Notes under the pieces: model-generated
Told to the model about the DNA's origin: nothing
Databases searched by the model: none
What the model saw: only the letters and a program-made list of their open reading frames with translations
Shown here: in pieces, positions 10,697 through 17,991 of the stretch
Layout of the letters: each line of letters opens with the position of its first letter
Position numbering within the stretch: the stretch's first letter is position 1
Position numbers and translations under genes: made by a program
From: Leucoraja ocellata
Taxonomy: Eukaryota
Assembly (NCBI GenBank): GCA_036785375.1
Contig: JAWMAR010000419.1
Span: forward strand, 620,001 to 684,000
Length of the DNA: 64,000 bases
Reading direction: 5' to 3'

Positions 10697-11287
10697 TTCC
10701 ACAGATTCACCATCTTCTATGAGAAATTCCTATGCAACTCAATTTTAAACGACTTTCCCCTCATTTTGCAGGACAACTGTCCCTCCTGCAACAGACCAAT
10801 GGAAGTTGATGAGGTCTTACAATAAAACTTTCTGATAGGACTGAAAGTAATCAGGTAATTTGTTGAATTTTAGTTTGTTTAAAACATTATTTGGGCAATA
10901 AGCATTTTAATTATTGAAAAAAGTTGTTAATGTGTTTTTCGTTAAGCAATTTGAGCGTTTCATTGTTCCAGTAGCAAAGCGAGAGGAAAATATTCCTAAC
11001 TGATATAGGTTTTCACATCATAAATGTTTATATAAAATGTGACTTGCTAACATTTGAGATATCGATTGGCAAAGCATAAGAGTAAGTAAACTGGATAAAT
11101 ATCATTACTATAAATCATATTCAAAACCTTTAGGAGATATGGAAATGGAAATTCAGCAGTCAGATTTTGTCAATTTTTTGCAATGTTTTCATCAGTCAAG
11201 AATTTAAATAAACTAATAATGTGATAGTGTTTGTAAAGTATAAACCAAAATACAAGTTATACATTTTTTGCAATCTGAGATAAATAC

Positions 11288-11389
11288 CATTTCTGCAAAA
11301 ATGCATCCGATGCTCCAAACATCCACCGCCGTTGAGTAAAATTTGCATCCCATTAAAATTTCGGGTGCTCTATACCACAAAGTTACAAC
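11288..11389 (-). CDS. CDK2/CDK3-type kinase, coding exon 5
   Basis: 102 bp, AG/GT flanked, [34 protein letters not shown]. Confidence 0.95.
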
Positions 11390-11949
11390 CTAAAAACAAA
11401 ATATAAAGGAAACATTTTAGTAGTAATTATTTGAATCCAAATCCCCCAAACAATCGCAGAATAAAACATTTTTGGTGCACATGACTGATCAGAGTATAAT
11501 ATGAGCAACAAGCATCAATGGATTTTAGTGATAAGTTACAGGTGTCATTATTAAGTCAATAGAGATCTACATGTATCCCAATATTAATTTATATAAATAT
11601 AATTATGCCGTCTACGTTTTTACTACCTTACAGTCTTTTCTAGTGCAGATAGTCAAGTTAATGTTCAAACTGACATCTATCTCCTTTTGGACTGGCGTTG
11701 ATTAAACTGGTAATTGAAGGCACAAATTGCTGGAGTAACTCAGTGGGTTAGCTGGCATCTCTGGAGAACATAATTAGGTGATGTTTCTAGCCGGGATCCT
11801 TTTTCAGTTTCTACATTAAACTGGTAATTGTTTGGTTCATAAATTTCAATAACTAAGAGATAGATAAATTATGAAGCTTTGTTTCAGTTTGCTATGATAA
11901 AATAAAGCGGCATTCCATTCTACTGAACAAACTGTTTAAATTTAGGTTT

Positions 11950-12925
11950 ATTATTGTCACGTCTATCGTGAAAAGCTTTGTTTTGCATGCTAGCCAATCA
12001 GATCAAATAATACTATACAAAAATATAATCGTAGAACTCCAGTATAAAGGAGAAGGTATAGATTGCAGAATATAGTTCTCAACAAAGTAGCACCAGTTCT
12101 AAAGACAAAGTCAAATGTCCACAATGGGGTAGAGGTGAATTGGACAGTACACTAGCTTACGAAAGCACTGTTCAAAGCCTGATAACAGATGGGATAAAGC
12201 TGTTCCTGAGTCTAGTGTTGTGTGCTTTCAAGCTACCATACCTTCTGCCAGTCGGCAGCAGAGAGAAGGAAATGACAGGGGTAGGACACGTCTTTAATTA
12301 TGTTGGCTGCTTTGCCGAGGCAGTGTGAAATGTAGATGGAGTCAATGATGGGGAATCTGGTCTGTGTGATAGATTGGGCTACGTCTACAACTCTGCCATT
12401 TCTTGCTGTTTTGGGCAACGCTGTTCCCAAACCAAGCTGTGATGAAACCCAACAGTATGCTTTCTATGGTGTATCTGTAGCAGTTTGTAAGAATCATGCT
12501 GAATTTTCTCAGTCTTCTAAGGAAGTAGAGGAGCTGGTATGTCTTCTTGGCAGTTGCTTCAATGTGGTTGGTCCATGATAGATTGTTGGTAATATTAACA
12601 CCACGGAACTTAAAGCTCTCATCCCTTTGCACTTCAGCACCATTCTTGCTGATTGGGGCATGTACTCCACCATGCTTCCTGAAGTCAACAAGATCCTTCG
12701 TCTTGCTGACAATGAGAGAGAGGTTGTTGTCCTGACACTGCGTTGCTAATTTCTCTATCCCCAAGCTGTACTCCTTCTCATCATTGTTCATGATCCGGCC
12801 CACCGCAGTGATGTAATCTGCAAACATGCAGTTGGAATTTGGCTGCTCAGTTCTGATTGTATAGGGAGTATAGTAGGGGTCTGAGAATGTATCCTTACAG
12901 GGCACCAGCTTTGAGAATTATTGTA
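11950..12925 (-). mobile_element. Rex1/Babar-like LINE 3' fragment (degenerate RT)
   Basis: ORF 12342-12905 with FAD..VGRI.NNDE..Y, NLSL.VSKTK, FKF.GV.ITNNLSW, LYFLRRLRKF. Confidence 0.8.
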
Positions 12926-13845
12926 ACGCACTAGAGTCTCCCAACCCCTGCAGAGTAGTTATTAAGATGGCTGATCTGTGAGTGGTTGCTCCTGGGACGC
13001 AAGTCGGGCCCTGATCAACCCCGGCTGGGTCGTCTGGGCGAGGGTGTCTGATGTTGTAAGAGCCGAAACACACGATGACCCCAGGTCACATCACTGAGGA
13101 TGTGTCCCAGCGCATCTCGAAGATGTATATTTTTCACACTGAAGTCTGGCTCAGTCAGTGGCACCTCGGAATAGACTTGGAGACAACCAAGAATAGTTTG
13201 GTGACTACTGGAAAGACAGTTGACGGCACCCGGGACAGGCTGGGTTAGCACCCCAGTCTGTGTTGTTCGTGAGAAAGACACCCAATAAAGCTACGGAAAG
13301 ACCTAATGAACCGCTGTGGCCTAAAAATCCATCAGGCGAGAATGAAATGCTCGGAGAAGGAGAAAAAGGTGCAGCGCACAGGCCTTGAACCTGGTGAGAC
13401 GCAGGAGGAGCCCAGCCAGGACTCACCCCACAGAGCCCAGTCCCTCCACGCATTAGTCGCCCAACCCCTTCAGAGTAGTTATTAAGATGGCTGATCCGTG
13501 GACGGTTGCTGCTGGGACGCAAGTCGGGACCTGATCAATCCTGGCTGGGTTGCCTGGGCGAGGGTGTTGTCGATTTGTGGCCTTTATAATAACTGTGGCC
13601 TCACACCATGTCAGGTTATATAGAGTTTATTAGGAGTTTATTAGGAACCAGCAATACAACTTCTCACTTGAGAGTTCACTTTAAGACTAACGGAATGCAG
13701 CAGACAAGCTAGTGGGTGTAACTACAAATGCATAACTCATAGCATGAGCCACTAATCTACATCCCCCCTCTGAAAGAATCAATAACGATGTATACCCATA
13801 ACTAAGCAAAGCAAATATCACAACCAATGACAGACTGGTGGAAAG

Positions 13846-16142
13846 TCAAACATAGTCCGGATACTTCACGACCGGCCTGCAAACACGAACGGCACGTGTA
13901 CGATAAAGGCCATCTCCATTCTTTTTCTCCGGGAAAAGAGCAGGCGATTTCACCACCGTGGGGGAGTGGACCAACGCCTCTGGAGTCGAAGCAGGAGACT
14001 GTGGCGCAGGCGAAGATGGAACAGACAGAGGAACTGTCGTAGGCATGGATTGTTGTGCTGGCAAGAGCATGCGAGGGTCACTAGATGCAGATTGAAATGA
14101 ACTTGTACAATCCGGATAATAAGGAGGAGGGACAGGCAGAAGATGTTGTCTGTTGCGTCGGTAGGCACCGCCATTGGCTCTAACAATGTAAGAGTGTGGC
14201 TCCGAGGCGGGACCTGAAACCACCCCAATACGGTCATGGCCTTTGTCAGTCTGTAACGAACCACCTGTCCTTTGGTCAATGACGGCAGAAGCTTTTGGTG
14301 TAACCTGGATTGAACCTCCTCAGGTGGAAAGACATGTGGGATTAATGTTTGCTCTGCTACGGGCAGCGGGATACAGGTCTGCCTTGACAATAATCGTTGA
14401 GCAGGTGAACCCAAGGCAGGGTCACGGGAAATGTTGCGTAAATTGAGCAAATCCAGGAATGCGTCAGATTTAGCCCTGTGAGAACGCTCCATGAGTTGTT
14501 TTGCACTTCTGCCAGCCCCTTCAGCCAGCCCGTTAAGACTGTGGATATTCATGGCTGCTGGTGATGTGGTGAAAATTCCAGCGTCTGGCAAACTCTCTGA
14601 ATTGTTGGCTGGGGAACTGACTGCCATTGTCATTCAACAGCTTGCCTGGAGATCCGTGGACGGAAAAATGACGAGATAATTTCGAAATCACACTGCTGGA
14701 AGTGGGGCTGCTGAGAAAATCAATGTCGAACCATCCTGAATTTGAATCCACGAACACCAGGTACTGCTTGCCGTGTCATTCAAATAAATCAGCTGCCACT
14801 GTAGACCATGGGAGCACAGGTACTGGATGTGGCAGAAGTGGTTGCTTTCGTTGATGAGGTGCCAGGCTATTGCACACCGCACAAGCTGCCACATTTTCGT
14901 TGATGTGTTCGGCCATACCAGGCCAATAAAACATACTTTTCGCCCGTGAAACAGTGGCTTCAGCACCTGGGTGACCTGCATGGACAGCGTCAAAATACCG
15001 GTGATGCAGCGAAACAGGAACCACGGCCTTGTGTCCTTTTAAAACAATGCAGTCTTGTAGCACCAGTTCGTCTCGAACAGGGAAGAAAGGTCGGACTGGC
15101 AACGGAACGTTGTCGTGCTTGTCTGGCCAGCCGTGCCTAATGACAGAAGTTAGCAATCGTAGGGTCTTGTCAGTGACTGTGTGGGCAACCAGGTCCTCCA
15201 TCCAAGATGAAGGGATGAAGGATACAGTCATCACAATAAAGTCATCATCCTGCAAGGGCAGATCCTTGCAGGTCTTACGAGGTGCAAGTGAAAGAGTGTC
15301 AGCCAGGTGCATATCCTTACCGCGTTTGTAGGTCAGGACGATGTCATATTTTTGAAGTTGTAGTAACATCCGTTGAAGGCGCGCAGGAGAGTTATGAGTA
15401 GTATTATTGAAAATGCTGATAAGAGGTTGGTGGTCGGTTTCAAATGTAATAGTGCAACCAAAGATGAACCCGTTTAACTTTTTGCAGGCGAACACAACCG
15501 CTAACAGCTCTTTTTCGATTTGAGCGTATCGTTGTTCTGTGTCAGACATGGTGCGCGAGGCATGGACGACAGGCTTATTGCCATGGCCATCATTCTGAAG
15601 GCATGCAGTGCCCAGGCCATGTTGTGAGGCGTCGCATGTAAGTGTAACAGGCAGTCTGGGATCAAAGTACGCTAGAGTAGAGGTGGCCGACATCTGCCAT
15701 TTAAGAGTGTCAAATGCTGTCTGTTGTTGCTCATGTCAGGTCCAAGCGTCTATGTGTGTGAGACGGCGCAATGGGGCTTATATTTTGCTGAAATCTGGAA
15801 TGAATTTGCTCAAATAGTTTGCCATGCCAAGGAACCTCTGCAAGCTGGGCTCATCGTGGGTGCTGGAAGCTCATTAATAGCACTGGTTTTCGCTGGATCA
15901 GTTTTCAGGCCGTCCTTGGTAAATATATGGCCTAGGTATTTTACGTCATTCACTCTGAATCTGCATTTTTTTGGATTGAGTTTGAGGTGGATGGCATTGG
16001 CACGCTTAATTACTTTTGTTAGATTGGCATCGTGTTCCTCGATCGTTTTTCCAGCAATAAGGATATCGTCCATTACAATGGAGCATGGGTATCCGGCAAA
16101 CAATTGCTCCATGGATTGTTGAAATACTTCACTGGCAGATCT

Positions 16143-16187
<45 letters not shown>

Positions 16188-16529
16188 CTTATTTATATAG
16201 CACATTTTTAGTCAACTTGCATTGACCCCAAAGTGCTTCACATAATTACATTACATTTTACACACAGGCAAAGGTGGGTGAAGTGTCTTGCCCCAAGGAC
16301 ACAACGACAGTATGCACTCCAGGCGGGATTCGAACCGGCTACCTTCCGGTCGCCAGCCGAACACTTAGCCCATTGCGCCATCTGTCGTCCCTTATATCAA
16401 AGGGCATCCTCAAAAATTTATAAAGTCCGAACGGAGTACTGAAAGTTGTCAGCTTGGAGGATTTATGTTCCAGTGGAATCTTCCAGAATGAATTCTTGGC
16501 ACCTAGCACTGTGAATACAGTTGCTTCGG
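13846..16529 (-). pseudogene. Gypsy pol remnant (RT-RNase H-integrase), frameshifted
   Basis: FWKIPL..TTFSTPFG..RMPF, MDDILI, LTCDAS..GLG, YAQIEKELLAVVF, H.GH.G..C..C zinc finger, DNGSQF, LNGLAE. Confidence 0.92.
16147..16390 (-). mobile_element. tRNA-derived SINE with CORE-like domain and L2-like (ATT)n tail, inserted in Gypsy RT
   Basis: A box TGGCGCAATGG, B box GGTTCGAATCC, GTGTCCTTGGGGCAAGACACTT core, GCTATATAAAT followed by (ATT)n; CTTATA on both sides. Confidence 0.85.
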
Positions 16530-16646
16530 CCATCTGCGCCGCAATCTCCTGCTTCGATCCAGAGATGTTGGTCCACTCCCCCACGGCGGTGAAATCGCCT
16601 GCTCTTTCCCCAGAGAAAATGAATGGAGATGGCCTCTATCGTACAT

Positions 16647-16696
16647 GTTCTGGTCTCCGATTGGAGGCGTGGGTTTGAATCCCACTTCTGACACCA
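16647..16696 (+). other. 50-nt copy of the 3' half of mature tRNA-Leu(CAA) including CCA (over-extended PBS; not a tRNA gene)
   Basis: GTTCTGGTCTCCGATTGGAGGCGTGGGTTTGAATCCCACTTCTGACACCA directly abuts the LTR; contains the anticodon 3' stem, long variable arm, T arm and acceptor strand. Confidence 0.88.
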
Positions 16697-17820
16697 TGTC
16701 GATTTGTGGCCCTTATAATAACAGTGGCCTCACACCATGTCAGGTTATATCGAGTTTATTTGGAACCAGCAATACAACTTCTCACTTGAGATTTCACTTT
16801 AAGACGAATAGAATGCAGCAGACCACGACGCTAACAAGCTAGTGGGTGTAACTATACATGCATGACTCATAGCATGAGCAACTAATCTACAGGTGTCTGA
16901 TGTTGTGAGACCCGAAACACCCGATGATCCGAGGTCACATCACTGAGGATGCGTCCCAAGTGCATCTTGAAGATGTATATTTTTCACAGTGGAAGATAGG
17001 CTGGCACCTAACCTCACTGATTGTGGTCTGTGGGTCAGAAAATCAAGGAAACAGTAGCAGAGGGGGTGCTGATTTCATAGTTCCAGTAGTTTACAGATGT
17101 TATGGTGTTGAAGGCAGAGCTATAGTTATCTAGGTTTTGTGAATTTCTTCTGATGGCTGATAACATAATGCTTTCTCAGCCTCCTAGTGATTATGGTCTC
17201 TGAGTTTGTTTCAGGAAGCTTTACAGATGAATCTGCGTCAATGTCCATACAGATGAAATATCTGAAGAGCAACATTAACGACAGATCAGGAATAGAAGGT
17301 GTGGCCATTTTTTATTTTCCTAGATCAGTGATGCTAAAAACAATTATAAAAGCAGCAAGATGACATTTCTAGTAGGGATTCACACCAGCAAAATCTGGCC
17401 CATTATTCTTTTCTGAACTTTAAATTTTCAATTAGGTTTTTTTAAATCTTGAATCTTCTCATCTTAGAATAAATATTTCTAAAAATGGGACAATCTTATT
17501 GGCCTTAACGTCATTCCTCAAATGCTTCCATCGGCTTCTGTTGGTGTACATCATTACTGTTAGAATTGCATTCAGTTTGCTTACTGCAAACTAGGACAGG
17601 AATTGACTCAAAATTAAAAATAGTGTAATTAAAGCCAACTTTCTTCTTAAGGCCTCCTATAATCTTTTCTTATAAAGTCATGCTTTCTGTTTTTAGAATA
17701 TTCATATTTACTGAATAAGCAACCATTTCAAAACTGGTCACTTGTAAGCAGGGGCTAAATTATTTAAAAAGGGAGAATCTAAATATACATTTTACGAACT
17801 ATTACATAAATCTTTGCTAC

Positions 17821-17991
17821 CTCGTGAGTATATGTGCGCACAGGAACTCCGAAAGCCCTTGCCAATCCAAAATCTGCCAACTTGATTGCACCACCATCAT
17901 TAATGAGCAAGTTTTGTGGTTTCAGATCTCGATGAAGGACTCTGTGAGAGTGACAGAATGCGACACCTTGAAGCAGCTGGAATAGATAACT
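17821..17991 (-). CDS. CDK2/CDK3-type kinase, coding exon 4
   Basis: 171 bp, [61 protein letters not shown] flanked. Confidence 0.96.

Follow-up and report, generated by a model that had tools for sequence, protein, structure and literature searches.

We describe a Gypsy-type retrotransposon insertion in a skate genome whose 5' LTR is followed by the complement of the 3' half of mature tRNA-Leu(CAA), together with many other insertions in this genome that carry comparably long tRNA copies. Probably, these copies derive from a plus strand that was extended too far, halted at m1G37 and reached integration by way of template switches, and they record m1A58, m3C47d and m1G37. This reading builds on features that are directly observed: the anatomy of the insertion, the homologies at its junctions, the recurrence of long copies across LTR groups, position-specific mismatches and a cut-off between tRNA positions 38 and 37. 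The assignment of the three putative modifications follows from the positions of the mismatches and from tRNAs of other species. An initial annotation of the locus had proposed that A58 was passed, that synthesis stopped around G37 and that two jumps preceded normal integration, a course of events that the junctions and the genome-wide census support.

The insertion in the window

The window, i.e. the whole stretch of 64,000 nucleotides analysed, corresponds to G000:C419:620001-684000 of the 3.44-Gb assembly. The element spans 16891 to 13568 on the minus strand and lies within a CDK2-like kinase gene of the same strand, in one of its introns (exons near 17934 and 11380; PF00069). It has the features of Ty3/Gypsy elements (Table 1): two TG...CA LTRs, a PPT, a TSD within the range of 4-6 bp and pol domains in the order RT-RNase H-integrase. 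Among the 120 homologues listed, one is named K02A2.6-like, a name associated with Mag, so that a Mag-like clade is a candidate. The two LTRs are identical at 171 of 183 aligned bases and additionally differ by indels of 12 and 11 nt; their origin from two templates was considered and abandoned as unsupported, since the differences look like private changes. As initially annotated, both LTRs, the PPT and the GGTGT TSD are intact, the sequence resumes within RT after an inverted segment, and gag and protease are missing. About 1.6 kb of the colinear copy L282, from the LTR to the point of the window RT restart, has been lost from the window copy. This stretch of L282 gave no Pfam match for gag or protease; by eye, it shows zinc-knuckle-like and protease-like motifs. 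An Rfam scan of 12500-17500 returned nothing useful.

The insertion target was one copy of a direct repeat pair of about 200 nt (12935-13141; 13455-13567 plus 16892-16991). The SINE inside RT has a tRNA-Ala-like head according to ARAGORN, an ATT tail and a target duplication; as it is missing from the duplicate copy of the locus described below, it is younger than the duplication.

Table 1. Features of the insertion, in window coordinates
Feature	Position	Strand	Remark
TSD GGTGT (5' side)	16892..16896		interrupted host repeat is elsewhere whole, with a single GGTGT, at 12935-13141
5' LTR, TG...CA	16697..16891	-	
Complement of mature tRNA-Leu(CAA), CCA to T38/G37	16647..16696	-	first 10-18 nt are the span of a normal PBS
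tRNA A58	16678	+	right base kept in window copy; wrong in 32/71 junctions genome-wide
tRNA position 47d	16661	+	T here, C in 21/21 parsed host Leu-CAA genes; putative m3C miscopy
Junction 1	16647..16648		2-nt overlap, tRNA G37-T38 with integrase tail
Inverted integrase-tail copy	16534..16648	+	source 13894-14009, 90.5% over 116 nt
Junction 2	16534..16548		15-nt imperfect homology, antisense IN with sense RT
RT restart, N-terminal part	16391..16548	-	RVT_1 profile 66-121
Later tRNA-derived SINE within RT	16147..16390	-	TATAAG duplication; missing in duplicate copy
Broken pol: RT, RNase H, integrase zinc-binding and core domains	13849..16146	-	Gypsy order
Integrase tail, donor of inverted segment	13894..14009	-	
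Polypurine tract	13762..13771	-	
3' LTR	13568..13761	-	
TSD GGTGT (3' side)	13563..13567		

A canonical PBS of at most 18 nt followed by leader is not what the window copy contains. The 50-nt CCA-tailed complement of tRNA-Leu(CAA) that had been noticed next to the 5' LTR is indeed the 3' half of the tRNA plus CCA, 49-50 nt in length, and is followed by inverted integrase. Aligned over 16648-16693 with the host Leu-CAA genes, it differs at a single base from gene L146 and at two to five from the other 20 parsed genes. That single difference is the change opposite C47d; the base opposite A58 is right, and G37 is ambiguous, since the 2-nt overlap at junction 1 means that this base may derive from either template. 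The inverted integrase tail was also correctly recognised at first, with limits (16530-16646 against 13896-14019) that are now replaced by those of Table 1.

Independent contigs of the runs X1, X2 and X4, which carry three organism labels, bridge junction 1, and X2 record 10 (16494-16681, 3 differences) bridges both junctions. A duplicate with the same junctions and flanks, 97-99% identical, lies about 104 kb away. Given this duplicate and the bridging contigs, the junctions are not an assembly artefact. The duplicate (L132, G000:C419:526863-533863, corresponding to window 11217-17698) includes the kinase-gene region and represents either a segmental duplication or a retained haplotype. As an observation in its own right, 12 contigs of run X1 stop matching at T38 (window 16648) and have mixed continuations, which suggests the same cut-off in that organism. 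The 26 RNA reads of run X22 that align here have no bearing on these questions.

Long tRNA copies are frequent in the genome

An exact LTR end followed by an 18-nt PBS was found at 1325 loci, 132 of which also match tRNA positions 48-39 from the 3' end. The reversed control pattern gave 0 matches; thus the long match is not due to chance. Ninety of 100 listed loci (132 in total) were analysed and fell into 76 junction clusters and 33 LTR clusters, the latter formed by single linkage, which may over-split. Two same-junction pairs (L091/L120 and L056/L110) proved to be separate events, so that 76 is a slight undercount.

The rate was estimated from an unbiased sample of 99 of the first 100 of the 1325 PBS loci, located on the largest contigs and representing 92 distinct flanks. 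Half of these (46/92) carry a tRNA copy of 27-50 nt and none a longer one, from which about 600 long-copy loci can be extrapolated for the whole genome. The copies end at 48-50 in 12 cases, at 41-43 in 13 and at 35-37 in 8; the ends are exact to within a few bases, and one copy of 27 nt is a borderline case. With 34 of the 46 long copies measuring 27-47 nt, i.e. falling short of position 38, most copies in this sample end earlier, which requires trimming or further stops. Among the 46 short-PBS loci of the same sample, 21 reach pol within 800 nt.

With matched patterns, Leu-CAA loci outnumber Leu-CAG loci by 132 to 2 despite the common 3' end. A generic pattern for any tRNA gave 182 matches against 146 in the control; hence it was rejected as evidence and used for leads only. 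One further locus, L185 (G000:C33:7218474), contains a CCA-tailed tRNA-like complement of about 40 nt that ends near the anticodon and is followed by telomere-like CCCTAA repeats; we take this copy to resemble tRNA-Pro.

That the element in the window is old (12 differences in 183 LTR bases) and later acquired a SINE would agree with insertion of a tRNA fragment and an inversion arising at the DNA level after integration. We give this origin next to no chance: the tRNA copy begins exactly at the LTR end and includes the non-encoded CCA, no duplication flanks it, and the PBS is extended in register at 132 loci.

Relatives of the window copy

A family search yielded 1327 candidates, of which 40 were scored and 30 loci returned, with a bias towards query-like matches. 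Counting duplicates once, eight events have a tRNA match of at least 17 nt and none of them has a normal leader, whereas all seven events with a normal leader have a tRNA match of at most 14 nt (Fisher p 0.00016). The initial annotation had named a 50-nt match and inversion in the normal leader of family members as a refuting finding; the colinear relatives have neither, and their PBS is just 10-14 nt long. The other two refuting findings named there, a tRNA match ending at 18 nt and junctions not spanned by reads, were not borne out either. In the long-match events of the family the junctions differ, six leading into inverted pol, one being a sense jump (a tiny two-LTR element) and one leading into other DNA.

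These data bear on the possibility that the tRNA match and the inversion are inherited, as a normal leader or in a spreading non-autonomous derivative, with the mismatches reflecting tRNA alleles or later mutation. Consistent with inheritance, 14 of the 76 junction clusters are two-membered, the leaders show a weak resemblance to the tRNA complement, and unassembled tRNA genes are possible. Ten of these 14 same-junction pairs, however, share flanks, two (L091/L120, L056/L110) are separate events and two (L037/L127, L094/L101) may be cases of re-transposition; among them there is no clear sign of a spread of read-through copies as a family. The window structure itself occurs in only two copies among the 40 scored candidates, and they share the same flanks, which neither fits a non-autonomous LTR family nor sustains the earlier suggestion that the window copy founded one. 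Nor does the insertion look like Helenus, as its tRNA match lies outside both LTRs and ARAGORN finds the SINE head only. In addition, the mixtures of all four bases at just two positions, unlinked within clusters (see below), do not fit inherited sequence. We consider inheritance extremely unlikely.

The leaders deserve a comment of their own. Within the 40 nt that follow the 5' LTR, the normal leaders (L281, L282, L284-L288) differ strongly from one another at nt 11-25, and the leaders of the seven related copies resemble the tRNA complement weakly up to about nt 39 (p 0.04-0.15). Possibly, this resemblance marks a pairing site for over-extended strands or an old, fixed read-through.

Mismatches opposite A58 and C47d

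Bases were counted in 71 indel-free representatives, five of the 76 being left out because of indels. At PBS nt 19, opposite A58, we found T in 39, A in 20, G in 7 and C in 5, i.e. 32/71 are wrong. At PBS nt 36, opposite C47d, G is present in 17, A in 43, T in 9 and C in 2, so that 54/71 are wrong. Against a background of 24/923 at non-CpG neighbours, the Fisher p is 1e-25 for A58 and 7e-55 for C47d. Variation at the two positions is independent (p 0.58), also within single LTR clusters, and one LTR cluster of 16 members displays all four bases at A58. A58 and C47d are encoded by every one of the 21 host Leu-CAA genes that were parsed; the remaining two of the 23 genes were unparsed and have another arm sequence. 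In 15 copies whose LTRs are at least 97% alike, mismatches occur in 7/15 at A58 and in 9/15 at C47d. The initial annotation had spoken of a fossil of tRNA modification sites; the record turns out larger than proposed, comprising many events and a third site at C47d.

In zebrafish, Leu-CAG bears m3C47d and many tRNAs bear m1G37 (PMC11417395). The passage of that paper on m3C47d does not name Leu-CAA; its supplements may show position 47d. Owing to the m3C47d of zebrafish Leu-CAG, the skate Leu-CAG cases serve as a positive control, and the C47d mismatch is present in 8/8 of them.

The cut-off at G37

Beyond the searched pattern, the match continues at T38 in 59/76 junctions, at G37 in 30/76 and at A36 in 23/76, the value at A36 corresponding to chance level; 17/76 mismatch already at T38. 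In each of the 23 host Leu-CAA genes, G37 is followed by an intron; a 3' exon on its own would thus likewise begin at 38. The template might therefore have been such an exon, or else a cleaved 3' half, of tRNA-Leu(CAA), in which case the end of the molecule rather than methylation would set the cut-off; the large excess of CAA over CAG points in the same direction.

Leu-CAG (eight cases) and Leu-AAG (one case), which are encoded by genes without introns, argue against this template, because their copies fail at the same base. Six of the eight Leu-CAG copies match to T38, and none of these six has the right base opposite G37, while two continue after an A. The Leu-AAG case L189 ends at C38, and L190 (AAG/TAG) ends at 27 nt. 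Furthermore, L084 and L097 run on into the spliced 5' exon, continuation into the intron is seen in 0/76, and L097 and L074 have A opposite G37. The intron is thus not the cause of the stop. A stress-cleaved tRNA half is possible for single cases; as a general explanation, a free exon or half is already largely refuted and very unlikely. As expected for a mature tRNA template, all copies contain CCA and two cross the spliced junction; the window copy, which ends at 38/37, does not show this junction.

Two further candidates for read-through past G37 were rejected. The extra bases of L080 are its TSD, and those of L100 may reflect microhomology to the inverted LTR of this locus. A Leu-CAG copy, L134 (G000:C319:2327830), has an A opposite G37, reads on and stops near position 27, beside G26; m2,2G26 would fit this end.

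Fate of the insertions and proposed mechanism

Outcomes were scored in 69 of the 76 representatives over 6 kb downstream of each. A 3' LTR is present in 34/69 and an exact 5-bp TSD in 19/69; no 3' LTR was found within 6 kb in 35/69. L080 consists of LTR and tRNA alone, with a TSD, L096 jumped back to its own LTR end, and L100 and L095 are fold-backs rebuilding the CA end. Another minimal insertion, L120 (G000:C298:1976667), comprises LTR, a 49-nt tRNA copy and LTR, with a 5-bp TSD and without PPT.

According to the mechanism we propose, plus-strand synthesis would have run on into the attached mature tRNA primer, miscopying m1A58 and m3C47d on the way, and would likely have stalled at methylated G37. 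Such an over-long plus strand would be unable to pair with the short genomic PBS, like the dead-end product described for Ty3 (PMC5371799), and so would have to prime elsewhere. In the window copy, a first switch over 2 nt would have led to sense nucleic acid close to the 3' end, probably the second genomic RNA, with 115 nt copied backwards. A second switch, by 15-nt pairing with minus-strand DNA in RT, would have caused the loss of about 1.6 kb before insertion by integrase. Other insertions may have been rescued by a sense-oriented jump into pol, by a return to the LTR or by a fold-back, and the survivors would be those products that regained ends joinable by integrase or repair. Several findings weigh against this mechanism: most long copies of the unbiased sample end before position 38, 17/76 junctions mismatch already at T38, Leu-CAA far exceeds Leu-CAG, a 3' LTR is missing within 6 kb in 35/69 loci, and the window copy has the right base opposite A58 and an ambiguous G37.

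The same read-through could also have been completed by a jump of the minus strand, as the finished sequence does not reveal which of the two strands made the jump. After a stall in RT, the minus strand would have looped back onto its integrase tail via the 15 nt, copied 115 nt and been joined over 2 nt to the over-long plus end. Such a route would lead to the identical sequence without a second RNA and with the longer homology acting first, and fold-backs do occur at other loci (L083, L129, L100, L095). L293 speaks against it: its tRNA copy is separated from a short piece of sense sequence near the 3' end by about 1.75 kb of pol in inverted orientation, and a minus strand reaching just this sense piece could not template the inverted pol within one molecule. 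We regard the minus-strand jump as unlikely and favour the rescue of the plus strand.

Discussion

Beyond the mechanism, we think there is a reasonable case for a wider claim: vertebrate genomes rich in tRNA-Leu-primed Gypsy elements would constitute a fossil tRNA-seq library that can be dated. Around half of the insertions with a perfect PBS would be rescued read-throughs preserving germ-line m1A58, m3C47d and m1G37 base by base, among them an m3C47d on tRNA-Leu(CAA) that the zebrafish passage does not name, and primer read-through would be a major route to defective elements instead of a dead end. A side reaction known in vitro would become an in-vivo, heritable record. If true, germ-line tRNA modifications, past or present, could be read from an assembly alone and dated by LTR divergence. 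The record would provide a direct count, for Gypsy RT, on the debated tightness of the m1A58 stop in vivo, and it contradicts the assumption that read-through DNA never integrates. PBS callers and repeat libraries that are based on copies with a perfect 18-nt PBS would be enriched in aberrant insertions in such genomes. Our literature search, with subscription journals and Repbase outside its coverage, found no genome-scale record of such tRNA read-through. The chemistry of read-through is already known from HIV, and the integrated, genome-wide record is apparently new within the literature covered.

Retroviral proviruses or circles in which the PBS end carries tRNA sequence or deletions were reportedly described by Pulsinelli and Temin in 1991 and by Colicelli and Goff in 1986; these are said to be single laboratory clones without a modification map. 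They share with the skate insertions a faulty plus-strand transfer and rearrangements anchored at the PBS.

Helenus elements have a tRNA-like promoter inside the LTR, for which a SINE origin was proposed, and form families (PMC10886601). Helenus and TRIM elements resemble the skate insertions in being non-autonomous LTR structures with tRNA sequence; the skate insertions differ by an antisense primer copy outside the LTR and by being one-off events.

In Ty3, a plus strand containing tRNA sequence is presented as a dead end, and the PBS is not refreshed from the tRNA (PMC5371799); in Ty3 and Ty1 the PBS is inherited from RNA (PMC5371799, PMC7472051). The skate element is likewise of the Gypsy type, and its colinear copies keep a short, drifting PBS. 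In Ty3, however, about 12 nt of the tRNA are copied and the product is discarded, whereas here up to 49 nt were copied and rescued. Mouse ERV PBSs were examined for modification errors in a review, which reports none (PMC7472051).

The closest parallel is HIV-1, whose plus-strand strong-stop DNA is described as ending at m1A58, at m5U54/Psi55 and at ms2t6A37 (PMC13191261, PMC8599865). As there, the RT of the skate element appears able to read past A58 and to halt at a base 37 that is probably modified. For HIV-1, the position-37 product is portrayed as minor and as no active template (PMC13191261), and read-through DNA as unable to integrate (PMC8599865). Unlike these, the position-37 products of the skate were integrated in many independent germ-line insertions, and their miscopied bases were kept.
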